A stretch of DNA of 64,000 bases from Parcubacteria group bacterium RIFCSPLOWO2_01_FULL_48_18. GTDB taxonomy: Bacteria; Patescibacteriota; Minisyncoccia; UBA6257; WO2-01-48-18. The stretch's first letter is position 1. Every line of letters begins with the position of its first letter. The DNA lies in assembly GCA_001824435.1 (NCBI GenBank), contig MHXH01000018.1, forward strand, positions 1,458 through 65,457. The letters run 5' to 3'. Shown in pieces: positions 7,601 through 22,400 of the stretch. Made by a program: the position numbers and the translations under genes. Under the pieces are notes generated by a model, which was given only the letters and a program-made list of their open reading frames with translations, was not told the DNA's origin and did no database searches.

Positions 7601-9905
7601 CACCCGACCCGGAATCAAACATCGAGTCAGCATTCGAAGTCGATCGCGCTTTTCGTTCAAGAGAGTTATTTAGGCCCAATTGCGGCGACGATGAACCCTC
7701 TACGAGACCCTGCGTTCCCCAGCCAAGCCGATCAATAATTCCTTGCGCGTCTGCCGCGATCGGCGAGAGACTTATGGTAACCCCGCTTGAGGTAGCAAGC
7801 GTTGTACCCACGGGGTTATACGTAGCATCAGGAGAGGTTATATCAGAATAACCGCTCTCCGGGGTAAATAAGTAGAAGCTCCTCGGTTGGAGCACCGAAC
7901 GGTTAACCGTAAGAGCCTTATGGGATGCGGTCGAACTTGCGTCGGCAAGGTGCAGAAATATCCGCTGTGGAGAAGTACGGGCAAGCTTAAGATCCCCGTT
8001 GGTAAAGTCTTGATAGATAACAAAATAGGTGCTCGCGTCGTACGCGTATAGAGATGTGTATCGGCCGACGTCTCCGATATTGTCCAAGGTGTAAAACGTC
8101 CATGTCGTTCCACCGTTTACTGATTTTGCAAATTTAAGATTGTTATTGGCGGCATCTAGATACGTAATAAAAATCGTGCTTGCATCGATCGCAACAAGAG
8201 ATGTGTATTGGCCGACGCTGCCTTGAGAGTCTATGGTTGAGGTAGTCCACGAAGCACCGCCGTTTACGGTTTTGGCGAAACGAAGATCTAATCCATCCGA
8301 TTCGTAATAGCTGATAAAGTATGTGTTCGCGTTGACTGCCCGGATGGATGTTTGCCCGTAGATATTCCCGGCCGCATCAATGGTTGTAGTGCTAAATACT
8401 GCGCCGCCGTCTGTGGACTTCGCGAACTTCAAATCTCCATTACCATGATTCCGGTAGCTTACGATAATGGTGCTTGTGCCGATTCCGTGCACCGAAGTGT
8501 TTTGGCCCATTACGACTCCGGCTGAGTCGAGCGTTGATGTTGTCCACGCTGCGCCGCCGTTGTTTGACCTTGCAAAACGAAGCGACGTAGCGCCCGTATT
8601 GTCGTAGTAACTGATGTAGAAATTGCTGGCGTCCGAGGCGTAGAGCGAAAGATCACGCCCTTGATCTCCCGCGCTATCTATGGTTGAAGTTGTCCATGCT
8701 GTGCCGCCGTTTGTGGATTTTGCGAACTTTAGGTCGAGCGCGGTGAAATCAAAGTAAGCGATAAAAATCGTGCTTGTGCCGATTGATTGCAAGGCGCTGT
8801 ACGACCCCACGTCGTTAGCGCCCCCGTTATCGACAACCACTGTTGTCCAGCTTGATCCGCTGTCCAAAGATTTTGCGAACTTAAGATTACCGTTCGTATT
8901 GTCGTAATAGCTCGCGTAGAGCGTTTGCGCGTCTACCGCGATAATTTGCATCGGTCCCGAACCGATTTCGCCCGTCGTATCAATCGGCCCCGTGGACCAA
9001 TTCGTCCCTCCGGGAGAAAGGTTAAGCGCCATGTCGCCCGTATTATAAAGCTCGACAAATTCATTGAGTTCGTTTCCGGTCTTTCCTCTTCGAACTTCAG
9101 AAATCTTTAGGTTGGGAGTAATACGGTGCGTTGTGGTCGCGATCGCATTGCCGACAATATCTTTAAAATCGGCGCCGATCTGAAGCGTATCTCCCGGAGC
9201 AAACGTAATTACGGCTCCCGTAGCGCTTATATTCACGATTTGCCGATTTCTACAGGCAGAAGGGGGGTCGCATATTATTCCCGGAAGCTGGGTTTGCACC
9301 TCCGAATCACCAGAATTCTCGGTTGAAATGACGTAGGTTGAAGTGACGCCGCTTACTCCCGAAAATCGTAAATCTTCATTGGCAAAGACTAAAATAGAAC
9401 CGGTGTTTTGAAGCACAACGTTTCGTATGACGGGCGCCGCAGTATCTTCGGTTCCTGGAGTAAATTGGATAGTTGATGATCCGGTGACGCACGCTTCATT
9501 CGCGTTATTCCAAATTTGACTTGCGGCACAGGCGATCGAAAGCTGACCCGATGATGTAACGTTTAGATTGGGGCTTATGGTGAGGGAAATGACTCGGTCT
9601 CCCGGTTCGGGAAAGGTATCGGGACTTAACGTATACGCGCTTGAACTTGCGCCGGTCAAGGCAAAATCTGTTGATGTCACCGCGCCGATTGAGCCGGTGG
9701 CGGTGTAAAGCGGTTGATCGAAAATAAGCCCAATTTTATTTTGTCCGTTTTTCCATTTGAGTTCGGTAAGCTGCGGCGCAGCCGCGAACGCATCGTCTGC
9801 GGGAAAAACAGAGAAAAATAAAAAAACGCCGACTGCGACGCAAAAAATAACAACTTTTTTAGGGATCGTCGCCGTGGCCAAAAATTCTTGAAATGCGTTT
9901 ATCAT
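1662..9905 (-). CDS. Giant secreted cell-surface protein (about 2747 aa). It has a lamin-tail-like segment, Asp-box/BNR-like beta-propeller repeats, multiple CarboxypepD_reg-like beta-sandwich domains, a Pro-rich linker and two C-terminal peptidoglycan-binding (PG_binding_1) repeats.
   Basis: The ORF runs 1662..10172. The probable start is the in-frame ATG at 9905 (MINAFQEF...), which gives an immediate signal peptide; the upstream 267 nt overlap the 10087-10272 inverted-repeat element. Repeats LKFAKS(x)NGG(x)WTT recur about 8 times with about 44-aa spacing. ISEV..NELNEFVELYNTGD is lamin-tail-like. Domains of the form G.V.D..G.P..GA.V.......TDA.G.Y.L are present. The PPPPPPSTVTPPPPAP linker precedes 2x LKLGDSGDTVKTLQQFLKDEGVYPEGLVTGYFGLLTKAAVIRFQ. 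Confidence 0.8.
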   Translation of the reverse strand: MINAFQEFLATATIPKKVVIFCVAVGVFLFFSVFPADDAFAAAPQLTELKWKNGQNKIGLIFDQPLYTATGSIGAVTSTDFALTGASSSAYTLSPDTFPEPGDRVISLTISPNLNVTSSGQLSIACAASQIWNNANEACVTGSSTIQFTPGTEDTAAPVIRNVVLQNTGSILVFANEDLRFSGVSGVTSTYVISTENSGDSEVQTQLPGIICDPPSACRNRQIVNISATGAVITFAPGDTLQIGADFKDIVGNAIATTTHRITPNLKISEVRRGKTGNELNEFVELYNTGDMALNLSPGGTNWSTGPIDTTGEIGSGPMQIIAVDAQTLYASYYDNTNGNLKFAKSLDSGSSWTTVVVDNGGANDVGSYSALQSIGTSTIFIAYFDFTALDLKFAKSTNGGTAWTTSTIDSAGDQGRDLSLYASDASNFYISYYDNTGATSLRFARSNNGGAAWTTSTLDSAGVVMGQNTSVHGIGTSTIIVSYRNHGNGDLKFAKSTDGGAVFSTTTIDAAGNIYGQTSIRAVNANTYFISYYESDGLDLRFAKTVNGGASWTTSTIDSQGSVGQYTSLVAIDASTIFITYLDAANNNLKFAKSVNGGTTWTFYTLDNIGDVGRYTSLYAYDASTYFVIYQDFTNGDLKLARTSPQRIFLHLADASSTASHKALTVNRSVLQPRSFYLFTPESGYSDITSPDATYNPVGTTLATSSGVTISLSPIAADAQGIIDRLGWGTQGLVEGSSSPQLGLNNSLERKARSTSNADSMFDSGSGDSDISDVFGGNGYDTDNNAANFVTQTTSTPQNSLSASEFPSGGPQGDTGPPYVQFSFPGPNDSNIPRDIPSIGFGFNEPVDNLTITSSTVLLRKVGPDGQAETGDDISVSGTVVINDPNDFTKPPYEFRAALEGGTTYVFKVLGGATSSCTTCVKDFAGQALNQSGRLVNGQGATSTDGISFRVVFSVGSGTITPTFPPFVEGTMPFPGSVVPPNISKVGIKFTAKIASSSANSGTINLSKLNTDGTKIAVTTSNFTLPLAFNDEVVQFDATFASSSRYEIGVTTGVKSKDNIFLGSPFFASFETLASNDATPPKVVASIPAAGATNLQRTKTKIIAHSDDDLDPATIFGTTNVVLKDAGPDNVFAATSTDDIEFPGIFEYDFFNKDVFFVATNPFVLGRNYRLTIKSGASGVKNIVGLQFDGDGNGTAGDDYNLNFTVESANTDTAGPAVVFARAHDFGAAVTFSEPVPTGEVTLFSKYSFESPSGTPVVLSAIGGQRIDYDEVDNTIFVENLKLVPGNSFKLIISPLPDLIGNLSATSTFNGTVEQASFFGGELDPGAGSVMGPMTPPPGGTIGFIPSAHVFPFSMLPNATTTYGVELPISKQIPSGGRIELTFPSGFGIGGAKKEPQSPTNNDLNGPGPGTPAFSTSTEASGGASDDGVTIDTVSNVVKITLAGTTRSESGDQHDFIHLDIAGIKNTAIPRDFNTGGYTVGMKTYDASGTLLESVGAEAFFILAGGNFTLRGQITNASSGAAINDARLVVFSPMTGPAPLVTANLTFGTSSDDGRYSADSLVGGDYFVVTEPFFTVGGADYVGSSFPTPVRVDSASCVSNICTRNFTVTPVSSTAAVGIAVKLTHATNTFSASEELDVLAGGPANFSVRTVTPGAGSRSASDPAITTLYLNQNGRWFVGVGPAMPKGLSFFFAGPPTPPNWIMPQPLDIEVSGCPSACAVTIATATFNIRVADKTVTGQVVNGSGLGIGGAEVYAYSPIEKMGTRAQTGSDGSFSLRAIEGMFLAGVFVPGMPSGNEISVRIDSAGQLFIGSDPTPKANIVIKVVKPDFSISGKAVDDSSNVVQGASIYAYRTDGLGHTEAYTDASGLYTLYVGNGTWNVGAFIPGFGSLPERTVVVSGANATGINFSPTTAGVTFRSISGTVCRDNNGNSSCDAGEEFSNVNVYAEALISSVYRFNDALTNASGSYTLKVPANTGASDTYTIRSFSPTVGELGKITVDVSSTDATGRNIVAGAPNTITFNFSTTTTKLFVDVFDPSTNRGNVFEAQNVTSTSLQVPSSTSYILKLSLDGMNIPKENATGTGYASSTAALDASVNRTITVTLPTLVTISGTTYRDSTSNTLSDVWVEVMSTSTRYRVGAKSTSTGAFSLRAPAGDYTIVGSKPGYIGKPTAISVGAGGSSGAQLILYEATLSVSGLVYRDANSNSTFDSGEAVANAMVRAVDSDSSFVTTAADINGAYSLKLTSVAGTWTISALADSYGQGTAGPYAGNAPPSTLNINLGSTISTNKPLTKSMTPSAGGVHSDTNSGVEMVFPANALGTSQNSAQITIKETANIPITGTANPVGSTGIEIDAVDANGSPITTLSGASTLKITKTKQQMSDSGDFGSLAALGTIDEVALTYFDESTQSWVSAPTSIDVLIKNNSGDAFVSVDPATFASNMSSGLDNPNATGTNTGIDYYADFQITYKGSFEHLTRFAIVGAAVATPSAASTGSSGGGGTPSSPSPSSQPSSEPVTSVTPLPSSTQLAVAPPPPPPSTVTPPPPAPVTALPPAVVVPPPAVALPPVLAKSLKLGDSGDTVKTLQQFLKDEGVYPEGLVTGYFGLLTKAAVIRFQEKYASEVLVPAGLTKGTGFVGSSTRAKINALAKLKALAEKKPEVPRLKLAVSRLEKNLALGAKGDDVKALQQLLKDEGVYPEGLVTGYFGLLTKAAVIRFQEKYASEILAPNGLTSGNGFIGPSTRTKLNSLIK

Positions 9906-10086
9906 AATTTTACGCCCGACGAATCCGTCCGCCAAAAACAGTACAGTATTGAAGTCATTATAATAAATCCGTGTAGAATCGCAAAACAGAGGACCTGTGG
10001 ATAAGTAGAAACATTGCTTGGGTTTTTCTTTGATACGTTTTTGATGATTTATAAAACCGCATTCTAAGACTCCCAAGTTCTTCAAG

Positions 10087-10272
10087 TCTAAGGGCTTGTA
10101 AATAAATAACCTTCCCATCTCGCTTCCATCTTCACCCCATCTTCGGCTTTTCCTCAATCGCAGAATCTTCACCGTAGCGCTGCTACGCTTCAGATTCCGC
10201 TCAATCGGAAAAACCGAATCTGGGGCAAATCTGTAACCGAATCTGCAAAGGTTATTTATTTACAAGCCCTAA
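10087..10272. repeat. Intergenic inverted-repeat element: 23-bp perfect terminal inverted repeats (26 bp with one mismatch) around a roughly 133-bp internally quasi-palindromic core
   Basis: AGGGCTTGTAAATAAATAACCTT at 10091-10113 is the exact reverse complement of AAGGTTATTTATTTACAAGCCCT at 10247-10269. The core has imperfect dyad symmetry (ccccatcttcgg...ccgaatctgggg) and direct repeats of ccgaatctg. Confidence 0.85.
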
Positions 10273-10274
10273 GC

Positions 10275-10302
10275 CTTGAAAAATTGGACATGCATGGTAT
10301 AT
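10275..10302 (+). promoter_or_regulatory. Sigma70-like promoter for ftsH: TTGAAA, 16-nt spacer, TGgTATATT
   Basis: -35 TTGAAA at 10275-10280; extended -10 at 10294-10302, duplicated again at 10308-10316; it abuts the right arm of the inverted-repeat element. Confidence 0.4.
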
Positions 10303-10358
10303 TATAATGGTATATTATATAGAGAATATCAATTAAAAGGTGGTTAGCATATTATTTC

Positions 10359-12218
10359 ATGCGGAAGAAGCGCATCTATTCCATGACCAATTTTAGCAAA
10401 AATATTCTTTGGGCAATTGCGACGCTTCTGCTCACGGCATTATTATTTGCCTCGCTCGCGGACAACCAAGAAAAGCCGCAGGTGATTTCTCTCAATGAGT
10501 TGGCCGCAAAAGCGAATGCCAACGAAGTGGCAAAAGTCGTCGTTCAGAAAAATGACTTGAAAATTGAACTCAAAAACGGCGGCAAGCTCGTGTCAAAAAA
10601 GGAATTCGATTCAAGCTTGACGGAAACGCTCGTGAATTTCGGCGTTGAAAAAACCGCGCTCTCGCAAGTGGCGATCGAGATTAAAGAAGAATCCGGATTC
10701 AAATTTTGGGCCAGCGTAATTATTCCAGCAATACTCCCGCTCATTTTTATCGGGTTCCTGTTTTGGTTTTTGATGCGCCAGGCGTCGCGCGGAGCAAGCC
10801 AGGCATTTTCGTTCGGAAAAGTAAATCTTAAACTGTTTACCCATTTCAAGGATAAGATCACCTTCAAGGACGTTGCCGGCCTTAAAGAAGCCAAAGAAGA
10901 ACTGAAAGAGGTCGTGGACTTTTTGAGCCATCCGAAAAAGTTTCTGGAAATCGGGGCAAGAATTCCGAGAGGGGCGCTGCTCATGGGCCCGCCGGGAACC
11001 GGAAAGACGCTTCTCGCGCGCGCAGTAGCCGGCGAAGCAAACGTGCCGTTCTTCCATATCTCCGGCTCTGAATTCGTGGAGATGTTCGTCGGCGTAGGCG
11101 CTTCGCGGGTGCGGGATCTTTTCGCCACCGCCAAAAAAGCAGCTCCGGCGATCATCTTCGTCGACGAAATTGATGCCGTGGGCCGCGAACGCGGCGCAGG
11201 GCTCGGCGGCGGCCACGACGAACGCGAACAAACCCTGAATCAAATTCTGGTTGAAATGGACGGCTTTGATCGCGATACCAATATCATTGTGATTGCGGCG
11301 ACCAATCGCCCCGACATTTTGGATCCGGCCCTGCTTCGGCCGGGACGCTTTGACCGCAGAGTCGTATTAGACATGCCCGACATCAATGACCGTGAAGAGA
11401 TTTTAAAAATTCATGCCAAAAACAAACCGCTCGCGGAGGGCGTCGATCTAAGAAAAGTAGCCACTCGCACACCAGGATTTGCGGGAGCAGATCTTGCGAA
11501 CGTAATAAACGAAGCCGCGATTTTTACTGCACGGCAGAACAAAAAAATAATCGAACAAAGTGCTCTCTACGAATCAATTGAAAAGGTGCTCTTGGGTCCC
11601 GAGCGTAAAAGCCGTATCATCTCGCAGAAAGAGAAAGAAATCACCGCGTATCATGAAGCCGGTCACGCGCTTGTTGCTTCAAGTTTGCCGAACGCCGATC
11701 CGGTGCATAAAGTTTCCATTATTGCGCGCGGGAGGGCCGGGGGGTACACATTAAAACTTCCCACCGAAGATCGCAACCTGCGCACGCGATCGCAATTCCT
11801 TACCGATTTAGCGGTATATCTTGGCGGTTATGCGGCGGAAAAAATCGTTTTCAAAGAACTGTCCACCGGGGCGTCGAATGACCTGAAGGAAGCATCCGAG
11901 CTGGCGCGCAAGCTCATCACCAAGTACGGCATGAGCGAAAAGTTGGGTCCCGTGACGTTCGGCAAGTCGGAGGAAATGATTTTCCTCGGAAGAGAAATTG
12001 CAACGGAGAAAAATTATTCCGAGGAAACAGCCGCCCAAATCGACAAAGAGGTCAATCGTTTTATCACGAACGCGTATCAGACGGCCCATGACGTCATCAT
12101 GAAGCATTTTAAGGTGCTCGAAGGGATCGCGCGAGCGTTGATTGAAAGAGAAACCCTTGAGCAGGAGGAATTCGTAGATCTTGTCAAAAAGTTCAAATTG
12201 AAACTGGTGGGAGCGTAA
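10359..12218 (+). CDS. ftsH: ATP-dependent zinc metalloprotease FtsH
   Basis: N-terminal TM segments, AAA Walker A GPPGTGKT, second region of homology, and protease HEAGHA zinc motif; 619 aa. Confidence 0.95.
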
Positions 12219-13579: not shown

Positions 13580-13665
13580 GCCGAGGTGGTGGAATGGCAG
13601 ACACGCAGGACTCAAAATCCTGTGCTCGCAAGGGCATGAGGGTTCGACTCCCTCCCTCGGCACCA
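13580..13665 (+). tRNA. tRNA-Leu (anticodon CAA), type II with long variable arm, CCA encoded
   Basis: Hand-folded: acceptor GCCGAGG/CCTCGGC, anticodon loop CTCAAAA, T-arm GAGGG-TTCGACT-CCCTC, 3' ACCA. Confidence 0.85.
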
Positions 13666-13790
13666 GACAGAAAAACATCGGCTCGAACCATATTTTACGG
13701 AATCGGGAATTTCTTTTTGCCCCGAAAACTCCATACGATTTGGTCGCCGAGCGAAGCGAGGCGACATCTGAATCTTTGACATTTCCAACA

Positions 13791-13878
13791 TGGTGCCCGG
13801 GGTGGGAGTCGAACCCACAAGCCCTGTTAGGGGCCGAGGATTTTAAGTCCTCTGCGTAAACCATTCCGCCACCCGGGC
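13791..13878 (-). tRNA. tRNA-Leu (anticodon TAA), type II, CCA encoded
   Basis: Reverse complement gives GCCCGGGTGGCGGAATGG...GAGGA-CTTAAAA-TCCTC...GGGTTCGACTCCCACCCCGGGCACCA. Confidence 0.85.
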
Positions 13879-13993
13879 ATTAAACTAAAATCTAGAATTT
13901 AAAATCCGAAAAAAAGTTCGCGGAGGCCACGGCGACAATTGCACTTTCGTATAACGGTTTTGTTCCCTATTTGTCCAAAATTGAAGAACAATT

Positions 13994-14053
13994 TTGGTTA
14001 CAAACAGCAATCCCGCTCAAAAATTGGTTACAAACAGCAATCCCGCTCAAAAA
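13994..14053. repeat. Perfect tandem direct repeat, 2 x 30 bp (TTGGTTACAAACAGCAATCCCGCTCAAAAA), immediately 3' of tRNA-Cys
   Basis: Exact duplication at 13994-14023 and 14024-14053. Confidence 0.9.
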
Positions 14054-14061
14054 TTTGACCG

Positions 14062-14133
14062 AGGCCGGGATGGGAATCGAACCCACGTATAAGAGTTTTG
14101 CAGACTCTCGCCTTACCACTTGGCTACCCGGCC
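14062..14133 (-). tRNA. tRNA-Cys (anticodon GCA)
   Basis: Reverse complement GGCCGGGTAGCCAAGTGGTAAGGCGAGAGT-CTGCAAA-ACTCT...GTGGGTTCGATTCCCATCCCGGCCT; discriminator U, no encoded CCA. Confidence 0.8.
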
Positions 14134-14148
14134 AAATTTTTGCGCGGG

Positions 14149-14190
14149 ACAGACCGTCGTGTTAGCTACTTCACCACCCGGCCACAACTT
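14149..14190 (-). pseudogene. Truncated tRNA-like fragment resembling the 5' half of tRNA-Cys
   Basis: Reverse complement GGCCGGGTGGTGAAGTAGCTAACACGACGGTCTGTCC shares GGCCGGGT...AAGT...CGA..GTCTG with the adjacent tRNA-Cys 5' half but has no T-arm. Confidence 0.3.
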
Positions 14191-14285
14191 TGCCCGAAAC
14201 AAATGACTACCACACTGCTTGGTTACCACGCCTGCGTTCAAGTTAAGAACGGGTTAAAAGTTTTTGGGGATTCTTAAGTTGGAAA

Positions 14286-14633
14286 TTACGCAGGGCGACT
14301 AGGGCGCATTGTCTCGTCAAGCAATTTATCTATCCTTTCCGCATTCGCGGACCCTCTATCAATTTTAAAAACCAGGTCGGGGAATGTCCTGATGTTAATT
14401 TTTTTGTTGACCATGCCCTTCAAATAGCGTCCCCGCGCCTGGAGCAGCGTTAGCACGCCCTCGGCTTTCCGAAAAGGATACACGGCTATTACTACCGTTG
14501 CCCTGGCCAAATCCTTGGTGGTTTGCGCATCCAGTACGGTTACCATCGCGCCTTCGAAATCGAAATCTCTTTCGATGATGGTCCCAAGCTCCCTTTTAAT
14601 CAATTCGTTTATTTTATCGATTCGGTGCTTCAA
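14286..14633 (-). CDS. rbfA: Ribosome-binding factor A
   Basis: 115-aa KH-like RbfA sequence directly downstream of infB, the conserved infB-rbfA order. Confidence 0.8.
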   Translation of the reverse strand: MKHRIDKINELIKRELGTIIERDFDFEGAMVTVLDAQTTKDLARATVVIAVYPFRKAEGVLTLLQARGRYLKGMVNKKINIRTFPDLVFKIDRGSANAERIDKLLDETMRPSRPA

Positions 14634-14653
14634 GATACTAAAGACTTCTCGAA

Positions 14654-16147
14654 TTAATAAAAGCGTAATTCGTCTCCTTCCTTAATTATAACATCGCCCT
14701 CGAATAAAATTCCCGCCTCGTTGTCTTTTTCAATCCGGTCAACGTCTTTGCGCTGAGACTGGAGATTGACGATTGTGCCGGATCCTGCTTTTTTCTCCCT
14801 GCGCCAGATTTCGACAGCTGCCTTATTTTTTATCTCCCCTGCCGTTATTTTTCCGCCAACCACTTGCCGTTTTTCAATACCGCGGAACGTGGCAAGTACC
14901 TTCATGACGCCCAGCGGCTCTCGGGGCAACCGCCTTTTAATTTCTTCCTCAACCGCCTTAAGCACGCGGTAAATAACATCGGAGGCGAAAATGGCAATGT
15001 GATTGTTTTTTGCAAGGTTCTCTGCCGATGTATGCACCTTCACATTGAATGCGGCAATTATCGATCCGGTCGAAATGGCCAAATTGACGTCGCCGTTTGT
15101 TATCTCTCCGACGCCAAAATCCACGATGCGAATTTCGATATTTTCTTTACCGAGCCCCTTGAGCAATTCGACAAGCGCCTCGGCAGATCCGGAAACGTCT
15201 GCCCGTACGATAATATTGTACACGTGTTCTTTGTCCGTTTTGAACGGTTGTAAACGAAGCGCGATAGTAACTTCTTCGCGGCGGCGGCGCATCTCTTCTT
15301 CAGCTGCCCTGCCGGCGATAAATTCTTCTCCCACCAGGGGCAATTCATCAAAACCGACAAGCAGCGCCGGCGCAGACGGCTTGACAAGCTTAATCCGCTT
15401 ACCGAAAAAACTCTCCATGATCCGTATTTTCCCTCTTGCGGTAGCAGTCACGATCGCTTCCCCTACTTTCAGGGTGCCGTTCTTCAAAATAACGCTCGCG
15501 GTTGTTCCCCTTTGAGGGTCTGTTCTGGCTTCAATGACGATGCCAGCCGGGTCCCCTGCCGGATCGTACGTCAAGTTTTGGAGCTCCACGGCGATAAGCA
15601 ACAAATCCAGCATCTCGCCGATGCCCTGGCCCGCTTTTGCCGACACTTCCTGATATGAAATATCTCCTCCCATGCCTTCCAGAAATACGCCGGCATCGAG
15701 TAATTCGCGCTTTGTCCTATCGACATCCGCGTTTGATTTGTCGACTTTGTTGATGGCAACGATAAACGGAATTTGCGCGGCCTTGATATGCATGATTGCT
15801 TCTTTTGTTTGTTCTTTAACTCCGTCATCTGCGGCAACAACCAGGATGGCAATATCGGCCACCCGCGCCCCTCGCTGCCGCATGCGCGAAAATGCTTCGT
15901 GGCCCGGCGTGTCAATAAACGTAATCCGCTTGCCGCCATGCACTATTTCATATGCTCCGATGGATTGCGTAATGCCGCCGGCTTCTTTGTCGACAACGTT
16001 GGTTTTCCGTATGGCATCCAGCATCTTTGTCTTTCCGTGATCGACGTGCCCCATTACGACCACCACCGGGGAACGTTCCTCTGGTTTTTTCACCCTTTTT
16101 ATGGTCATGGTACCAATATAGTGTACCATGAGCTTTGGTGAAATCAA
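14654..16147 (-). CDS. infB: Translation initiation factor IF-2, short form (497 aa)
   Basis: GTPase G1 GHVDHGKT, G3 DTPGHEAF, NKVD; the following domains match IF-2 G/II/C1/C2; no long N-terminal domain. Confidence 0.9.
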   Translation of the reverse strand: MISPKLMVHYIGTMTIKRVKKPEERSPVVVVMGHVDHGKTKMLDAIRKTNVVDKEAGGITQSIGAYEIVHGGKRITFIDTPGHEAFSRMRQRGARVADIAILVVAADDGVKEQTKEAIMHIKAAQIPFIVAINKVDKSNADVDRTKRELLDAGVFLEGMGGDISYQEVSAKAGQGIGEMLDLLLIAVELQNLTYDPAGDPAGIVIEARTDPQRGTTASVILKNGTLKVGEAIVTATARGKIRIMESFFGKRIKLVKPSAPALLVGFDELPLVGEEFIAGRAAEEEMRRRREEVTIALRLQPFKTDKEHVYNIIVRADVSGSAEALVELLKGLGKENIEIRIVDFGVGEITNGDVNLAISTGSIIAAFNVKVHTSAENLAKNNHIAIFASDVIYRVLKAVEEEIKRRLPREPLGVMKVLATFRGIEKRQVVGGKITAGEIKNKAAVEIWRREKKAGSGTIVNLQSQRKDVDRIEKDNEAGILFEGDVIIKEGDELRFY

Positions 16148-16591: not shown

Positions 16592-16667
16592 AGAAGCTCT
16601 TTGCCATTACCAATGTTTTTCTCAAAAACAAAAGCCCTGATGAATATCAAGGCGTTGAAGATGAGGA

Positions 16668-17018
16668 TTATTTTCCCCCGATGATTCTGCGAAGCAATGA
16701 GAGCGTAGAATTTTCCGTGATGAGCGGATTTTCTTTAAGTTGTCCGTTTTCAAACTTGATTTCGCGGTCATTCAACATTACGGTATAGTCCGTCACTCTT
16801 CCAAGCGGGTGCTGCCGGTCAATCTCGGCGATAAGATCGGAGAGCGTAGCGCCTCGCGGCACCGAAATTCTAACATGGGATCCATGGATGGTAACATCCA
16901 CCTCAATGGTGTCGGAGGGCGGTGCGCCTCCCGGTCTCGTCCGTTCTTGCTCGCTCATACATGACTCCTGCTTTGGATTTTTCCGAGGTTCCTTAATCAG
17001 TATAAACGTTTGTTTCAA
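16668..17018 (-). CDS. Ubiquitin-like beta-grasp protein ending ...LSLLRRIIGG-K, probably processed to a C-terminal Gly-Gly. An alternative start at 16958 gives 96 aa.
   Basis: C-terminus RRIIGGK resembles ubiquitin LRLRGG plus one extra residue; about 75-aa beta-grasp-sized core; directly downstream of, and overlapping, the E1-like gene. Confidence 0.6.
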   Translation of the reverse strand: MKQTFILIKEPRKNPKQESCMSEQERTRPGGAPPSDTIEVDVTIHGSHVRISVPRGATLSDLIAEIDRQHPLGRVTDYTVMLNDREIKFENGQLKENPLITENSTLSLLRRIIGGK

Positions 17019-17628
17019 TGGTTGGCAAGTGTTCCATATTCACAGCTATTTCCCACAACTCGCTTCGAGGAATTCTTGAGTTGGAAAAAAACGCCAGCGC
17101 ATTGGAAATTGCGGCCGCGACTACCCAGAGAGTAGGAATCGTTTCTTGATTCGCGCAGGGAGCCGGAACCCCTTCTTCATCGGCATGAAGCGTTCTTTCG
17201 TAGCGCTCGACCAAATCCGGATTGCGAGGGTCAAGAACGTAGACAAGCGCGACGCCTTCCCCGGTTCTTGCATCGATATAGAGAGGGATATTGGCGCGGT
17301 ATTTGCAGGCTTCAAAAACGGCTCTTCGCGCAGCCATGGAATCAACGAGCGTAACGACGATACCGTCAAATTCGTGAGCCGCATCTATTTTTTTGAACTC
17401 TGCTTCTACAGAAGACGTTTCCAGTTCATTGAGTATCTTCTGCAATACCGCCACCTTAGGATAGCCCACGTCGTCCAAGCGGTACAACTGGTTTAAAGCG
17501 TTACGGGGCTCGACGATATCGTGATCAAATACGGTAATTCGCCAATGGAAGGCGCCGGCCATTTTTGAAAGAAGAAACGTCGTGAAGCTTCCGAGGCTTC
17601 CCGCCCCCACGATGTTTATCGAGAACAT
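16993..17628 (-). CDS. E1-like adenylyltransferase (ThiF/MoeB/HesA superfamily)
   Basis: Rossmann GAGSLGS loop and the conserved VFDHDIVEPRNALNQ block (ThiF D.D.VE.SNLNRQ); 211 aa; 1-nt overlap with the JAB gene. Confidence 0.8.
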   Translation of the reverse strand: MFSINIVGAGSLGSFTTFLLSKMAGAFHWRITVFDHDIVEPRNALNQLYRLDDVGYPKVAVLQKILNELETSSVEAEFKKIDAAHEFDGIVVTLVDSMAARRAVFEACKYRANIPLYIDARTGEGVALVYVLDPRNPDLVERYERTLHADEEGVPAPCANQETIPTLWVVAAAISNALAFFSNSRIPRSELWEIAVNMEHLPTIETNVYTD

Positions 17629-18236
17629 TATTCGAAAATCCCGTCTAAGATGTAATCGAAGAGTTTTTCGAAGGGATCATAGACAATGTTCTGTTCGATA
17701 ACCGATTGGATGTGATTTTCTCGCTCGCGCATAAGATGCAGTATGTCTCTTTTTGTGGCTGGATCTGTAAACGCTAGTCCTTCGAACAAAAACGGCGGCT
17801 GCCTCACGGGCTTGAAAACGTCAAGGCGCAGATTCATAGATCCGCGCTTATTCAAGACCAGGCTCATCCACCATTCGTTTAGGGGAATGCTCGACCAGCT
17901 TTCAATGGTTTCATTGTCGGTCTTGCTGAAGCGGGATTCAAAGTATACATGGCTATGCCACCACAGCCGATATTTGTTGATGAGCGGACCTCGGCCTTCA
18001 CGCATCATTTCCTGCGTCCACTTCCCATGCGCCACGGGATCAAACTCCGTTCTGGAATACGAACAAACCTGTCTGAATATGACCGGTTCTCCCGTAATAG
18101 TATAGACGTTTCCGGTTTTCTCTACGAAACCGAGGCCGGATACTTCTGTGGGACAAAGGTGTACGGCGAGGAGCAGGTCTGCGAGCGTGAGAGGATTAAT
18201 GCAAGCTTGCGGTACATCATTATGTTCGCGGTTCAT
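17628..18236 (-). CDS. JAB/MPN+ (JAMM) metalloprotease, candidate Ubl-processing or deconjugating enzyme
   Basis: Complete JAMM motif: E31 in TEVSGLGF, then H94-S-H96-x7-S104-x2-D107 (WWHSHVYFESRFSKTD). Confidence 0.8.
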   Translation of the reverse strand: MNREHNDVPQACINPLTLADLLLAVHLCPTEVSGLGFVEKTGNVYTITGEPVIFRQVCSYSRTEFDPVAHGKWTQEMMREGRGPLINKYRLWWHSHVYFESRFSKTDNETIESWSSIPLNEWWMSLVLNKRGSMNLRLDVFKPVRQPPFLFEGLAFTDPATKRDILHLMRERENHIQSVIEQNIVYDPFEKLFDYILDGIFE

Positions 18237-19486
18237 TGCCGCCTCCTTCGTTCATCGAGCTTTCCCGCGCGTAAAAGCTCAATCACCGCATGCAAATATT
18301 CTACAAAGGACGCGCGAGCATGAAGTTTGGAAAGCTCCTTCAGTGTGTGTGTATCAAGTATGAAATAACCGTTTGGGTCTACCTTTAGCGAGAGAGGGTG
18401 ATCGGACGGGATACCCCTAAGTTTTGGCAATGCATCGGATTTAATTTCGAGTTCAAGCGAAAGATTCCGGAAAGAAAAATTAATACAGAGAGCTGTTTCA
18501 TCGCTTTGCGGCGCATATTCTTGCCGGATCATGTACGCGCCCGCGCCAATGAAGGCCTCAATCTGCTCGTTAACATGATATTCCAAATTTGATGCACGCA
18601 TACGGTACCGCGCTAAAATTTTCTCTGCGCCCTTCATCTGATTCCGGAGATCTAAAACCCTGCTCAAATATTTTGAGAATTCTTCCTCAGCTTCTTTAAG
18701 AGCCTGGCTATTCAGTCTGTTAGCCCGTATAAGCTTGGCTTTGTGCAACAAAGCGGCATAGGCGCGTTTTGCCATCGCGCGTTCGTCGGGCGATCGGTAA
18801 CCAAACTCGAAAATAGGATCATACTGTTGCGGAGTTTCTTTTTTTGACGGCTCACGGAGAGGGACAGGATTCGCTTCGTCCCAGCGCAAAAATGAAAGCA
18901 GAAGATGCACAAGCGGGGCAATCTTGAAATCCGCAATGAGTTTAGAGATATCTTGGTTTAACGGACTTCCAAAACAAACAGAATATCCGGTTGCGCCGGC
19001 ATGCGGATGGCTGTGGGTGCCGCGATATTCGCCGGGAAGAAAGATTATACTGTCCTTAGTAAGATTTTCTTCGAGCAAACGTATGACGATATGAAATTGC
19101 CCGATGTCGTATTCGGTTTGTTGCGTTTTGCCCTCTATTTGCAGCCGAACAACCTGCATGATCCGCTTGGTGCATATACGCAAGTGGCCCTGATGTTCAT
19201 CAACCGAAATGAGTCGTACGCCCTCCATGGCCAAGATCTTTTCAAAATCATCGTCGAGGGTCGCGGCGCTTTCCCCCTCGCGCTTCAACTGTTCAAGGCT
19301 ATCCTGGAGTTCGGCAAGTTCAAGTGCCGCCCCATAACATTCGTCTTCCTCCTTGCTTAAAGCTTCTTTAAGGGCCCTAAGCCGCTCGGAGCCTCTTCTA
19401 AGTCGCTCTTGGTAATACGCACGGAGAAAAATCCGGAAGGCTTTCGTAAATGCGGCCTTCTCTTCGTTTCCCATCGCGAATTCCAC
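18233..19486 (-). CDS. Putative E2-like (UBC-fold) conjugating enzyme with a coiled-coil N-terminus and a roughly 200-aa C-terminal extension
   Basis: GEYRGTHSHPHAGATGYSVCFGSPL contains an HPH-x8-Cys arrangement like the UBC HPN...C active site; overlaps the JAB gene by 4 bp (ATGA). Assignment is by motif only. Confidence 0.4.
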   Translation of the reverse strand: MEFAMGNEEKAAFTKAFRIFLRAYYQERLRRGSERLRALKEALSKEEDECYGAALELAELQDSLEQLKREGESAATLDDDFEKILAMEGVRLISVDEHQGHLRICTKRIMQVVRLQIEGKTQQTEYDIGQFHIVIRLLEENLTKDSIIFLPGEYRGTHSHPHAGATGYSVCFGSPLNQDISKLIADFKIAPLVHLLLSFLRWDEANPVPLREPSKKETPQQYDPIFEFGYRSPDERAMAKRAYAALLHKAKLIRANRLNSQALKEAEEEFSKYLSRVLDLRNQMKGAEKILARYRMRASNLEYHVNEQIEAFIGAGAYMIRQEYAPQSDETALCINFSFRNLSLELEIKSDALPKLRGIPSDHPLSLKVDPNGYFILDTHTLKELSKLHARASFVEYLHAVIELLRAGKLDERRRRQ

Positions 19487-19570
19487 CCTTCCGTACTGAT
19501 ATTTTTAAAAAGCTGTTGTTAGTATAGGATAAATTTTAACAATAGGCAATTTTTTGAAAGCGGAGAAACA

Positions 19571-19598
19571 AATAAGACGCGCCGTCGCGTCTTATTTA
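19571..19598 (-). terminator. Hairpin (TAAGACGCG-ccgt-CGCGTCTTA) with flanking T-run, between the AAA gene and the E2-like gene; possible attenuator or terminator
   Basis: Perfect 9-bp GC-rich stem followed by ATTTGTTT on the minus strand. Confidence 0.4.
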
Positions 19599-19616
19599 CA
19601 GACAATTTTTTGAATA

Positions 19617-21506
19617 CTATACGATTCTTGTCGATTGAGGTTGCGAATTATGTTTACGAAGCTGCTTGGCGAGTTTTTTCCATTTTCCTTCAGGAATGAA
19701 TCGTTCGGAGTTGCAGTAGCTCAAGGCGAGTTCAGTCATGGTTCCGTACCGCAAGAAATCCTGGCCCGGAATGAAATCCTGAAACGCCCTCCGCAGATGT
19801 TCTGCGCCGAGCACCGCCCCTTCGTTGCTCGCGAGCGTATACGCTTTACGTACAATAGTTTCAATCTGCGCGCCGGTCAAACCAACCTCGTCCGACTCTT
19901 CTGTTCCTCGTTCATGCACGTCGGGATCGCATTCGATGAGACCCCGTGACGAATCGTAGTGCCGGTGAGAGAACCAGCCAAACTCCTGAAAGAACGAACC
20001 GTCTATGCTCCAGTTAAACGGAAATTTCTGTAACGCCGCCTGTATTTTCATTTTTTCGAGAATGGCGGGAAGTATTTCCCCTCTTTCCTCCGAAGAGGGA
20101 GGAAAGAACGGAATCCGTTCGTCAAATCGTCCTTCGCGAAGCAGGGCAGGATCGAGAAGATTGGGCATGTTTGAGGCAGCGAGCCACAGAACTCGTCCGC
20201 GGAGATTCGTGTCCGACATAAACTGGAAAAGGCGCGCCTGCATACGATTGTTGACGCCCGTATTGTCAATCATTGTGGACCGACTCTGATATTCCTGATC
20301 GATTTCGTCGACAAAGACTACGACAGGAGCTTGTGCCGCTATAAGTTCCAACGCGAAGTCAAGATTCCGTTCTGATTTACCCACCCACATTTCACGAATA
20401 TTTTTGAGCTTCACAAACGGAAGCCCGGCCTCGTGGGCAATCGCCTCGGCAAAAGCCGTTTTTCCGGTTCCCGGTGCGCCCAAAAGCAGAATGCCCATCG
20501 GTACGGCAAGAAAATCTCCCCGCTTGATGGCCTGCACCACTTCAAAAATATATTCTTTGTGAACCTTGAGTCCGCCGATGGCCTCCACGCCCCAAAGCGG
20601 CTGCATTATTTCAAGAAGTCCGCCCGATTGTTCTTCGATGAATTTCTTTTTCATCCGAAAAACCGTTTCGGCAGCGAGAGGAGCTTTTCTTAAGCCCGCT
20701 TCTTTGATCATGTTGCCGATTGCGTTTCGCGACATGCCCGCCGAAAGATAAGCGAGTTGCTTGGTGTCGATACTTTCTTTGTGCGGAGGGTACGATTTAA
20801 CGTGGAACGCGATTGTTTTTTCGCGCGCCGCGAGATCGGGGAAATAGAGCTTGAGAGGAGCTATGCCGTTTGTTTCCGATCGAAGCTGCGGAGCAATAAG
20901 TCCCAGGCTTTCTCCGACCAAGATTACAATATTACCGGCTTCCGAAATTTTTTTGTTCTTTGCCCATACGAGAAACGTTACCAGGGCATTCCGGTCGATT
21001 TCTTGGTTAGTAGCCGAGTCGCTGGGAGCGAGCGTTTCTATGTAATCGAGAATGGCGGCAAAAAAAGGTATTTTGAGTTCATCCTGCTCTTCAGGACAAC
21101 TCTTTACAGCTTCTCCGTTGCCTGTTTTTCTTGAGGCATAAGTAATTTCGAGCATTTCTCCGAAAAGCTGGAGAGCATATGCCGGATTGAATCGATTCCG
21201 CCTGAATTGTTCCAAAACTACATATTCGCCGGTCATCTGATTTTTTTCAGGATGGAGCATAACGAGAAATTCAAAGAAATCTTTTTCCATCTTGTGGTTC
21301 AGAAATTTAATCCCCGTTCCACGGTTAAAAAACGCAATAAAACGCGCTTTACCCGCCACGGTCCCCGAAACAAGATGTTCGTTCAGTTGTTCAATGCACC
21401 CGCCACGCCCATTTAAGACGTCATCGGCCACGTTCAAATAAAGAAGGAAGACGTGGCTCGATCGGGATTGCCATTTATACCTTAAGGCCTTTTCCCAGCT
21501 TTTCAC
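19617..21506 (-). CDS. Classical-clade AAA ATPase: roughly 330-aa N-terminal domain, one AAA module, C-terminal extension
   Basis: Walker A GAPGTGKT, Walker B VVFVDEID, SRH-like LLDPALLREGRFDERI; 4-bp overlap with the upstream ClpP-like gene. Confidence 0.85.
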   Translation of the reverse strand: MKSWEKALRYKWQSRSSHVFLLYLNVADDVLNGRGGCIEQLNEHLVSGTVAGKARFIAFFNRGTGIKFLNHKMEKDFFEFLVMLHPEKNQMTGEYVVLEQFRRNRFNPAYALQLFGEMLEITYASRKTGNGEAVKSCPEEQDELKIPFFAAILDYIETLAPSDSATNQEIDRNALVTFLVWAKNKKISEAGNIVILVGESLGLIAPQLRSETNGIAPLKLYFPDLAAREKTIAFHVKSYPPHKESIDTKQLAYLSAGMSRNAIGNMIKEAGLRKAPLAAETVFRMKKKFIEEQSGGLLEIMQPLWGVEAIGGLKVHKEYIFEVVQAIKRGDFLAVPMGILLLGAPGTGKTAFAEAIAHEAGLPFVKLKNIREMWVGKSERNLDFALELIAAQAPVVVFVDEIDQEYQSRSTMIDNTGVNNRMQARLFQFMSDTNLRGRVLWLAASNMPNLLDPALLREGRFDERIPFFPPSSEERGEILPAILEKMKIQAALQKFPFNWSIDGSFFQEFGWFSHRHYDSSRGLIECDPDVHERGTEESDEVGLTGAQIETIVRKAYTLASNEGAVLGAEHLRRAFQDFIPGQDFLRYGTMTELALSYCNSERFIPEGKWKKLAKQLRKHNSQPQSTRIV

Positions 21507-22267
21507 GCCCTACCTCCTTCCTGCTTTTCCGACAATGCTTCCGTTGGCGCGTTAAAAATCTCCATAATCTTTCCATCTCCCGGCGGAATTACCGCATCAA
21601 TAATGCCAGCTGCTTGCGCCTCGTACGCAGAAAGGTATGTTTCGTTTTTCAGGAATCTTTTGACGAGCTTTATTCTGCCTTCGTCGTTCTCAAGCATGGT
21701 TTTATCCCTCGGCGCGATTTGTTCTTGCTCCAGGTGATACTCCGGAATTTTAGTCCGCTGCGCCAAGAGAAGATACATTTGACGAGCCAGCCGGTCGGTG
21801 TACTCCTTGGCTCGCTCAAAATCCTCGCCCTGTCCTCCGATAACCCGCGATTCCGCGTGGAGGTGGACGATTGAACGGTCAAGCGCATAGCGCTTTCCTC
21901 TGGTGCCGGAAGCAAGAATGATGGACGCCATACTCATGGAAGAACCGACAACGAGAATTTCTACATCAATTCCCATGGCTTGAACGTGTTCGATTGCCTG
22001 GACAATCATGAGGCCTGCATCAATATCGCCGCCGCGGTTATTAATAACCATCTTGATCGGGTCTCGGCTTTCACCCGCAAGATAAAAAAGCGAGGCGAAG
22101 ATTTCTTCGGCAAGGAATGGAATGCTATCCGCCACAATGATGTCAACATTAATACTGGAATGGATCCTTCCGAAAAGCGTAATAATTCTTGAATTGCTGC
22201 CATAGATCATCCAAGGGGTTACGAGCGGCCCGGTGGGTGTCGGCGAAAACGGTCGTCGTAAGGTCAT
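21503..22267 (-). CDS. ClpP-family serine peptidase (divergent), catalytic triad apparently intact
   Basis: Aligns by eye to ClpP: INNRGGDIDAGLMIVQAIE (INSPGGVITAGMAIYDTMQ), VVGSSMSMASIILASGTRGKRYALDRSIVHLH ([34 protein letters not shown]), GIIDAVI; Ser, His and Asp are all present. Confidence 0.75.
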   Translation of the reverse strand: MTLRRPFSPTPTGPLVTPWMIYGSNSRIITLFGRIHSSINVDIIVADSIPFLAEEIFASLFYLAGESRDPIKMVINNRGGDIDAGLMIVQAIEHVQAMGIDVEILVVGSSMSMASIILASGTRGKRYALDRSIVHLHAESRVIGGQGEDFERAKEYTDRLARQMYLLLAQRTKIPEYHLEQEQIAPRDKTMLENDEGRIKLVKRFLKNETYLSAYEAQAAGIIDAVIPPGDGKIMEIFNAPTEALSEKQEGGRA

Positions 22268-22365
22268 GTGCTGTTTTCCTCAATCAAAAGGATTTTCAAA
22301 TACGCTAAGGTTATTCTACTATAAACAGTTAGTTTATGCAAAATAAAGAATGGAGCATCAAGTGG

Positions 22366-22400
22366 AAAAAAAATCAGCTTCCGAGAAAAGCTGGTTTTTT
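22366..22400 (-). terminator. Rho-independent terminator downstream of rpsA and upstream of the ClpP-like operon
   Basis: A-run, CAGCTT-loop-AAGCTG, T-run (bidirectional). Confidence 0.55.

Follow-up and report, generated by a model that had tools for sequence, protein, structure and literature searches.

Ubiquitin-type tagging of proteins for degradation is regarded as a trait of eukaryotes and archaea. To our knowledge, bacteria have one tag-and-degrade pathway, that of Pup, and its chemistry is unrelated. A six-gene cluster in a 64-kb stretch of DNA (contig MHXH01000018.1, positions 1,458 to 65,457; hereafter the window) from Parcubacteria group bacterium RIFCSPLOWO2_01_FULL_48_18, a metagenome-assembled genome of the Candidate Phyla Radiation (CPR), therefore raises a question: can such a bacterium couple a ubiquitin-like (Ubl) conjugation cascade to an unfoldase and a peptidase of its own? 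We propose, with a probability of about one half and on the basis of sequence, that the cluster is a chromosomal CPR Ubl-conjugation system tied to its own unfoldase and peptidase, which would direct proteins to unfolding and degradation. The novelty, as predicted, lies in the family of E2-like proteins and in the conserved coupling of a Ubl-conjugation operon to a Cdc48-like AAA ATPase and a ClpP-like peptidase; by sequence, the JAB peptidase, the ThiF-type E1 and the beta-grasp Ubl belong to known superfamilies.

An initial annotation of the window had described six genes on the minus strand, and all six proved to be real open reading frames (ORFs). In order of transcription they are:

21503..22267, minus strand: ClpP-like serine peptidase, 254 aa, with a Ser-His-Glu triad and an insertion of about 25 aa relative to ClpP
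19617..21506, minus strand: Cdc48/VAT-like AAA ATPase, 629 aa (AAA), with a degenerate D1-like N-half and the pore loop M-W-V-G
18233..19486, minus strand: E2-like protein, 417 aa (abbreviated E2L), with a UBC/RWD-like core carrying His160 and Cys171; NCBI places the start at Met5
17628..18236, minus strand: JAB/JAMM metallopeptidase, 202 aa, with E31, H94xH96, S104 and D107; Pfam Prok-JAB 1e-4, below cutoff
16993..17628, minus strand: minimal ThiF/MoeB-type E1, 211 aa, with GxGxxG, DxD, an NxxNQ variant and Cys158 (PCA)
16668..16958, minus strand: Ubl, putative beta-grasp protein, 96 aa from ATG 16958, ending RRIIGG-K

The overlaps first given for ClpP-like/AAA (4 nt), E2L/JAB (4 nt) and JAB/E1 (1 nt) stand, as does the 130-nt gap between the AAA and E2L genes. 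The 26-nt overlap of E1 and Ubl does not. Since AGGAG lies 7 nt upstream of the ATG at 16958 and the alignment of Ubl orthologs begins at its Met, the Ubl most likely starts there, leaving a 34-nt spacer after the E1 stop.

The E2-like protein and its predicted conjugation partners

The identification of the 417-aa protein as a putative E2 was the weakest link in the initial annotation, and it has held. In the model, E2L opens with a long helix, followed by an alpha/beta core (residues ~74-201), a hairpin of helices at 233-314 and, at the C-terminus, another alpha/beta domain (317-406). The window protein carries the motif H160-P-H162-x8-C171. In an alignment of 49 sequences Cys171 is invariant and His160 nearly so, and more distant members read HPH[IV]..G..C[LF]G, which is similar to the UBC motif HPN[IV]..G..IC. 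AlphaFold2 run on the family alignment gave a pLDDT of 93.4. A Foldseek search with the full-length model returned mainly coiled-coil matches, with just weak hits to UFC1 hinting at an E2, so the core was modelled by itself (pLDDT 92.9). The predicted core has a UBC/RWD-type alpha/beta fold, comprising an N-terminal helix, an antiparallel sheet and C-terminal helices. Cys171 sits in the loop after the sheet, in the register of about 8-10 residues after an HPN-type His that is seen in the UBC/E2 superfamily. Foldseek found no significant match to the core; Cap2 and CdnG-E2 were within its top three.

Sequence profiles give the same register. Against the sequences of the PDB, the best real match of the E2L profile, behind spurious hits to designed repeats, is UbcH7 (E 0.14), and the alignment stops exactly at its catalytic Cys86. 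Profile alignment (hhalign P 9.5e-4) sets His160 of E2L on the His of HPN and Cys171 on Cys86 of UbcH7, pairing YDIGQF.I.I...I.F...H.H...G..C of E2L with Y..G.F.I.I...I.F...HPN...G..C of UBC proteins. An indexed search for homologues recovered two relatives only; searches of this kind gave 3-4 proteins each, their word filter probably being swamped by coiled-coil and AAA words. An exhaustive profile search of 1.84 billion representatives yielded a family of 376 (clusters at 50% identity). No Pfam, NCBIfam or PHROG model matched sampled members at E up to 1, and the window protein matched neither a PADLOC E2 model nor Pfam UQ_con or Prok-E2_A to E. In a Pfam scan of the six proteins, E2L and the window Ubl were the two left without a family. 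Since no curated library model covers E2L, it represents an uncatalogued E2-like family. We conclude from the alignments and the model that E2L is a predicted UBC-fold, Cys-dependent E2-like enzyme of a family outside current libraries: fold and active-site register would place it in the UBC superfamily, and it belongs to no curated family within it. The additional domains may let it combine the roles of an E2 and an E3-like protein.

The JAB scores 22.6 bits against Pfam Prok-JAB (cutoff 25). The full E...HxH-x7-S-xx-D JAMM motif attributed to it is present, and the metal and catalytic residues (E31, H94-S-H96, S104 and D107) are invariant across nine sequences. When its profile was compared with solved structures, the best match was the Rpn11-like protein of Caldiarchaeum (1.5e-5), with human PSMD14 from 2.7e-4 and yeast RPN11 from 1.6e-3; CSN5 was also matched, at E above the 0.001 threshold. 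By these profile scores the JAB appears closest to Rpn11-type deubiquitinases.

The assignment of the E1 to the ThiF/MoeB type is likewise sound. It passes Pfam ThiF (3e-15; 56.4 bits, cutoff 28.1), and its profile matches ThiF (2e-9), UBA5 (7e-9) and UBA3 (1e-7). Its invariant columns are G8, G10 and G13 of GxGxxG, D35 and D37 of DxD, and D96. A single Cys is invariant, Cys158 in the sequence PCA; it lies in the crossover-loop region and is a candidate for the Cys of an E1-Ubl thioester.

The Ubl ends RRIIGG-K as first described. Gly-Gly is present in all eight aligned orthologs and is followed by one to three further residues in each of the six from clusters (GGK, GGKI, GGCSL, GGSRF, GGN and GGA), so these Ubls would be precursors that need trimming. 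The family profile matches MoaD (6e-4), di-ubiquitin (1e-3) and single ubiquitin (0.1-0.9), aligned up to the C-terminal Gly-Gly. Orthologs pass Pfam ThiS; the window protein itself has no Pfam match. The profile matches and the ThiS-passing orthologs point to a beta-grasp fold, as had been supposed.

The AAA ATPase and the ClpP-like peptidase

AAA was described as a classical AAA ATPase with Walker A, Walker B and SRH motifs, and this is borne out by Pfam (AAA, 5e-31). Walker A and B, the pore loop and the Arg fingers are conserved in six orthologs (GAPGTGKT, VDEID, MWVG and LREGRFD). The closest solved relatives of the active domain are Cdc48, p97 and VAT, with alignments to both D1 and D2 of Cdc48. 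The pore loop MWVG is of the translocating type (aromatic-hydrophobic-Gly) and aligns with MWYG of Cdc48 D2. Positions 151-326 of the N-half profile match the D1 region of VAT (7e-6), and in this VAT-D1-like half the P-loop is replaced by FLLYLNVADD; AAA is therefore a tandem AAA protein whose first domain is dead. Its score with the NCBIfam CDC48 model is 111.6 bits, below the cutoff of 802, and no match to a Cdc48-type N-domain (an N-terminal double-psi barrel) was found in it. Two further features are conserved towards the C-terminus: an insertion in the lid region with the pattern W-x-[ST]-H-x-H ... C ... H, within the C-terminal third (window 19617-20100), and an almost invariant CNSERFIPEGxW near the end. 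Neither matched a known motif. Judged by its residues, the insertion could be a zinc site, and either element could serve in docking.

The peptidase passes Pfam CLP_protease (5e-28; 98.6 bits, cutoff 20.2) and matches human ClpP at 7e-17. By profile it thus belongs to the ClpP fold (MEROPS S14). Of the Ser/His/Asp triad first assigned to it, Ser (in the motif SMSMA) and His fall on the catalytic residues of ClpP, whereas the place of Asp is taken by Glu; Ser, His and Glu are each conserved in five of five orthologs. The protein stays below every NCBIfam ClpP cutoff (NF001368, 86 of 249 bits; TIGR00493, 64 of 308.6 bits) and, by that measure, does not appear orthologous to housekeeping ClpP. 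A prophage head-maturation protease was considered and rejected: the NCBIfam hit to such a protease (4e-14) is weaker than that to ClpP (3e-24), and the neighbours are ribosomal and translation genes.

Conservation and context of the cluster

As far as the contigs reach, the order AAA-E2L-JAB-E1-Ubl recurs in at least 11 distinct loci (labelled L001, L002 and so on: the window, L001, L002, L003, L004, L008, L009, L010, L014, L020 and L023). Their named sources are Parcubacteria, Paceibacteria, Wolfebacteria and Saccharibacteria, and Parcubacteria group bacterium RIFCSPHIGHO2_02_FULL_48_10 has a protein 100% identical to the window E2L. Searching with E2L gave ClpP-AAA-E2L-JAB-E1-Ubl in L001 and L002 and AAA-E2L-JAB-E1(-Ubl) in L003 and L004. 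When the N-domain of AAA alone was used as seed, 185,579 species genomes gave three loci (L008, L009 and L010), from Paceibacteria, Wolfebacteria and Saccharibacteria. All three carry ClpP-AAA-E2L. L009 and L010 have the whole six-gene cluster in the same order, and L008 is a 4.9-kb contig that ends inside E2L after ClpP and AAA. In L010, the Saccharibacteria locus, a second, divergent E2-like ORF (L010:15529-16443) lies directly after the Ubl and runs off the contig end; it scores 4e-7 with the core profile and 4e-9 with the full-length profile.

A scan of JGI metagenomes with the AAA N-domain found nothing, and the JAB motif [RK]LWWHSH was used instead, giving 80 loci. An E2-like core gene lies immediately upstream of the JAB in 40 of the 49 JGI loci with at least 1.2 kb of upstream sequence. 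In this set, the loci that carry the AAA N-domain are those of the window's nearest clade (L014, L018, L020 and L023/24) and the more distant L057; 16 further loci, also more distant and with upstream sequence long enough to tell, lack it. L057 has the order AAA-E2L-JAB only (L057:7246-10570), with an AAA N-domain protein (3e-93) and a short E2-like protein of 273 aa; in the 2.5 kb downstream neither an E1 nor a Ubl was detected, and an M20 peptidase takes their place. AAA adjoins the Ubl module in every locus of the window's clade that has upstream sequence. The ClpP-like gene is present in seven of 11 loci with enough upstream sequence (the window, L001, L002, L008, L009, L010 and L023), in each case directly upstream of AAA and overlapping it. 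The linkage of the AAA/ClpP pair to Ubl genes, originally seen in one genome, is accordingly conserved throughout the clade for AAA and in the said fraction of loci for its partner. By gene content this appears to be a broad E2L-JAB-E1-Ubl family to which one CPR clade has added AAA always and a ClpP-like peptidase in about two thirds of loci.

The flanks are those of housekeeping genes. miaA lies directly upstream in L001, L002, L004, L009, L010 and L014, and gatB downstream in L001, L002, L009 and L014. Elsewhere the neighbours are rpsA/yraN (the window), PAP2/parB (L020) and holA with an HslU/ClpX-like gene (L023). The last of these encodes an AAA_2 protein right after the Ubl (L023:11734-13203), and L003 has a protein with a Lon N-terminal domain two genes after the Ubl (L003:5625-6701). 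Identities of AAA between loci (45-66%) track those of miaA (48-66%), as expected from vertical co-inheritance. The annotated flanks showed no integrase, transposase or defence domain, in agreement with the first impression that effector and defence domains were lacking. The housekeeping neighbourhood proposed for the window (infB-rbfA on one side, rpsA on the other) was confirmed by flank annotation, and the argument drawn from it has gained strength from the miaA/gatB synteny and the matching divergence. These contexts speak for housekeeping or regulation more than for a mobile island of defence genes.

Distant E2L-JAB-E1 relatives, with JABs 25-39% identical, are found on 36 contigs classed as viral by IMG/VR (L094-L129; for example L105:6612-9448 and L096:5172-8561), some of 60-190 kb. 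None of the 36 carries the AAA N-domain or a ClpP-like gene. PHROG models matched little in their flanks (L105 has a primase), and neither the JAB nor an E2-like protein from one viral contig had a match among GenBank phages; the viral label therefore rests on the IMG/VR classification. L105 (a putative viral contig of 189 kb, locus GC 0.35) has four ORFs with the E2-like core (6612-7946, 10001-11212, 14037-14525 and 14522-15115) around one JAB-E1 pair. L103 and L084 are two labels for one contig of 59,442 bp.

Within the window, the following signals border the genes of the cluster:

22375-22393: terminator-like hairpin after rpsA, preceding the promoter-like site of the ClpP-like gene
22313..22342, minus strand: promoter-like site TTTGCA-18-TAGAAT upstream of the ClpP-like gene, a weak match in the consensus scan
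19563..19596, minus strand: terminator-like hairpin and T-rich tail in the gap between AAA and E2L, AATAAGACGCG-ACGG-CGCGTCTTATT, with a perfect 11-bp stem at 19571-19596
19521..19549, minus strand: promoter-like site TTGCCT-17-TATACT ahead of E2L, weak, from the consensus scan
16634..16653, minus strand: terminator-like hairpin, then a T-run, right after the Ubl stop, from the consensus scan

The consensus scan for promoters gave no more sites than shuffled sequence would. The hairpin between AAA and E2L, already mentioned in the initial annotation, was read from the sequence and was not listed by the scan. A GC-rich hairpin with a T-run stands at the start of this gap in nine of nine loci examined. 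Such a conserved terminator implies two adjacent units (ClpP-AAA and E2L-JAB-E1-Ubl) in place of one operon. That the units stay adjacent and co-diverge with neighbouring housekeeping genes points to a role in proteostasis or regulation.

Other genes in the window flanks, from Pfam and annotation, are a YraN/UPF0102 gene, gyrA and ftsH, beside the rpsA, infB and rbfA named above. A single ORF of 2836 aa (1662-10172, minus strand) lies upstream of ftsH, and three tRNA genes (Leu-CAA, Leu-TAA and Cys-GCA; 13580-14133) lie between a pilT-like gene and rbfA.

Proposed function, rival readings and known systems

In the system that we propose, JAB would trim the Ubl tail to expose Gly-Gly, and E1 would adenylate the trimmed Ubl, which would then pass as a thioester to Cys171 of E2L. 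The coiled-coil and C-terminal domains of E2L may pick targets or dock on the machinery, and the Ubl would be joined to lysines of the target. A hexamer of AAA would recognise and unfold tagged proteins and, where the ClpP-like gene is present, feed them into the ClpP-like chamber. The tag would be recycled by JAB, in the manner of Rpn11 at the proteasome. The earlier proposal of tagging for degradation stands as far as gene identities and linkage go: a UBC-like fold in E2L, a beta-grasp-like Ubl, flanks free of sulfur-carrier genes and the association of the AAA/ClpP pair with the Ubl genes are all supported, and the degradation step itself we infer.

Several points weigh against this proposal. 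(i) We infer from sequence the formation of a thioester, conjugation, the docking of AAA on the ClpP-like protein and degradation. (ii) Structural scores for the E2 fold of E2L are moderate only. (iii) The E1 lacks the canonical Arg of NxxRQ, having N43-x-x-N46-Q47 in seven of seven orthologs. (iv) No ClpP-docking motif of the IGF or HbYX type was recognised in AAA, and its C-termini vary among orthologs. (v) The intrinsic terminator conserved in all nine loci parts ClpP-AAA from E2L-JAB-E1-Ubl. (vi) The ClpP-like gene is absent from four of 11 loci (L004, L014, L020 and L057), miaA abutting AAA in L004 and L014, so proteolysis cannot be obligatory. (vii) Distant relatives occur on contigs classed as viral, and the bacterial E1/E2/JAB pathways with an assigned role are antiphage: type II CBASS and Bil act in antiphage immunity (see also PMC10097602). 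For Bub, which uses oxyester chemistry and the serine protease BubE as its deconjugating peptidase, the same role is suggested by genomic context.

The last of these points invites the reading of the cluster as a conflict system against phages or other mobile elements, in which the Ubl would be placed on invader proteins (as in Bil) or on an effector (as in type II CBASS), with AAA and the ClpP-like peptidase as an effector or regulatory arm. PADLOC matches AAA to IetA (8e-23) and to TRIP13, and E1 to the Cap2 E1-E2, but these matches are limited to the generic AAA and ThiF domains. The relatives on IMG/VR contigs would also fit, although they are without the AAA N-domain and the ClpP-like gene. 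The genome scan gave few loci, as would be expected were the system scattered sporadically through CPR, but its search patterns were strict. We consider this reading unlikely, given that the annotated flanks hold no CD-NTase, nuclease, toxin or other defence gene, that the place beside miaA and/or gatB is stable in Parcubacteria, Wolfebacteria and Saccharibacteria, and that divergence matches that of miaA. Also improbable, in our judgement, is Ubl conjugation that serves a non-proteolytic AAA, be it a Cdc48-like segregase or remodeller of tagged proteins or a chaperone for the assembly or regulation of the conjugation enzymes, with the peptidase an optional addition. The universal presence of AAA in a clade where its partner is missing from four of 11 loci would be explained, as would the similarity to Cdc48/VAT proteins, the degenerate D1 and the lack of a recognisable docking motif for ClpP. 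However, the ClpP-like gene, where present, shares 4 nt with the start of AAA and has retained Ser, His and Glu; the pore loop has the translocating form; and genomes without a linked gene could use a peptidase encoded elsewhere.

The conserved terminator, together with the separate promoter-like site between the units, could mean that a ClpP/AAA operon and a Ubl operon are chance neighbours with uncoupled functions. This is very unlikely, as adjacency and order hold in several CPR lineages whose proteins share 45-55% identity, and in at least four flanking contexts, the loci found through AAA carry the Ubl module (so far as the truncated L008 reaches), and the AAA N-domain was never apart from that module in any recovered locus. 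Alternatively, the Ubl could be a sulfur carrier of the ThiS/MoaD type, acting for instance in tRNA thiolation, with JAB merely exposing Gly-Gly as in QbsD/QbsE or Mec+/CysO. The Ubl family is equally close to MoaD/ThiS and to ubiquitin, the best match of the E1 is ThiF, six loci have miaA next to the cluster, and L009 has mnmA in the vicinity. MiaA itself uses no sulfur carrier. An E2-like protein with its invariant Cys is there in every case, a rhodanese domain is missing from the E1, the annotated flanks gave no sulfurtransferase, ThiG/ThiH, MoaE, CysM, TtuA-type or rhodanese gene, and the AAA and ClpP-like genes would be left unexplained; we regard a sulfur carrier as scarcely credible.

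A Ubl-directed system of unfolding and degradation can be set beside several that are known. With the ubiquitin-proteasome pathway in eukaryotes and archaea, including the Ub/E1/E2/RING/Rpn11 operon of Caldiarchaeum (PMC3082918, PMC5654768), the cluster shares a tag of beta-grasp type with Gly-Gly at its end, an E1, an E2 of the UBC fold whose site is His...Cys, an Rpn11-like JAMM protein (the best solved match of our JAB comes from Caldiarchaeum), a classical-clade AAA unfoldase and a self-compartmentalising peptidase. It differs in that the peptidase has the serine ClpP fold and not the Ntn-threonine fold of 20S, AAA resembles Cdc48/VAT with a dead D1 and not Rpt/PAN, the E1 is a minimal ThiF-like protein of 211 aa, E2L has no UQ_con match and has coiled-coil and C-terminal domains, there is no RING/E3 gene in the cluster, and the host is a CPR bacterium. 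Archaeal SAMPylation (SAMP/UbaA/JAMM with PAN or Cdc48 and 20S; PMC4895103) likewise has ThiS/MoaD-like Ubls, a MoeB-type E1, removal by JAMM and AAA-dependent proteolysis; unlike the cluster, it has no E2, its genes are dispersed and its peptidase is the 20S proteasome. The Pup-proteasome system of Actinobacteria (Mpa/ARC with 20S; PMC8755798) also places a small tag on lysines and uses an AAA unfoldase to feed a compartmental peptidase, but Pup itself is disordered, its ligase is the glutamine-synthetase-like PafA, E1, E2 and JAB play no part, and the peptidase is again the 20S proteasome. As in ClpXP and ClpAP, a ClpP-fold serine peptidase is encoded beside, and translationally coupled with, its presumed ATPase; here that partner is a classical-clade Cdc48-like AAA and not a Clp/Hsp100 protein, with no IGF-type loop recognised, the acid of the triad is Glu, and the scores are far under the NCBIfam ClpP cutoffs.

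The bacterial conjugation systems (Bil, type II CBASS with Cap2/Cap3, Bub and classes 6a-6e of Iyer et al. 2006; PMC1779556, bioRxiv 10.1101/2024.11.21.623953) share an E1-like protein, an E2-like protein and a deconjugating peptidase, which is a JAB in Bil and CBASS; the Ubl is encoded in Bil and Bub, as it is here. In contrast with type II CBASS, the CPR cluster and its flanks have no CD-NTase, there is no E1-E2 fusion, and the PADLOC match to Cap2 covers the ThiF region only. In contrast with Bub, catalysis is predicted to be Cys-based and not by oxyester. E2L falls outside all the Prok-E2 Pfam families, and the linkage to AAA and a ClpP-like peptidase sets the cluster apart from these classes: the terms 'AAA' and 'ClpP' occur 0 times in PMC1779556. 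The setting also differs, being one of housekeeping synteny and not the antiphage setting reported or inferred for Bil, CBASS and Bub. No description of the CPR cluster was found in the literature, whose coverage was incomplete, so that this is not proof of absence.

More tentatively, and with somewhat less confidence than in a coupled system as such, we suggest that the cluster may be a self-contained CPR analogue of the ubiquitin-proteasome system. It would then be, after ubiquitin/20S and Pup/20S, the third independent solution to tag-directed proteolysis, and the first in which ClpP is paired with a cascade of ubiquitin type. If the proposal is correct, ubiquitin-like targeting and compartmental proteolysis would have been coupled more than once, and the six genes would form a system small enough for reconstitution in vitro. 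It would also add an E2-like family of 376 clusters (50% identity) that is new and lies beyond the models of Pfam, NCBIfam, PHROG and PADLOC, and would bear on proteostasis in CPR bacteria, organisms with minimal genomes.

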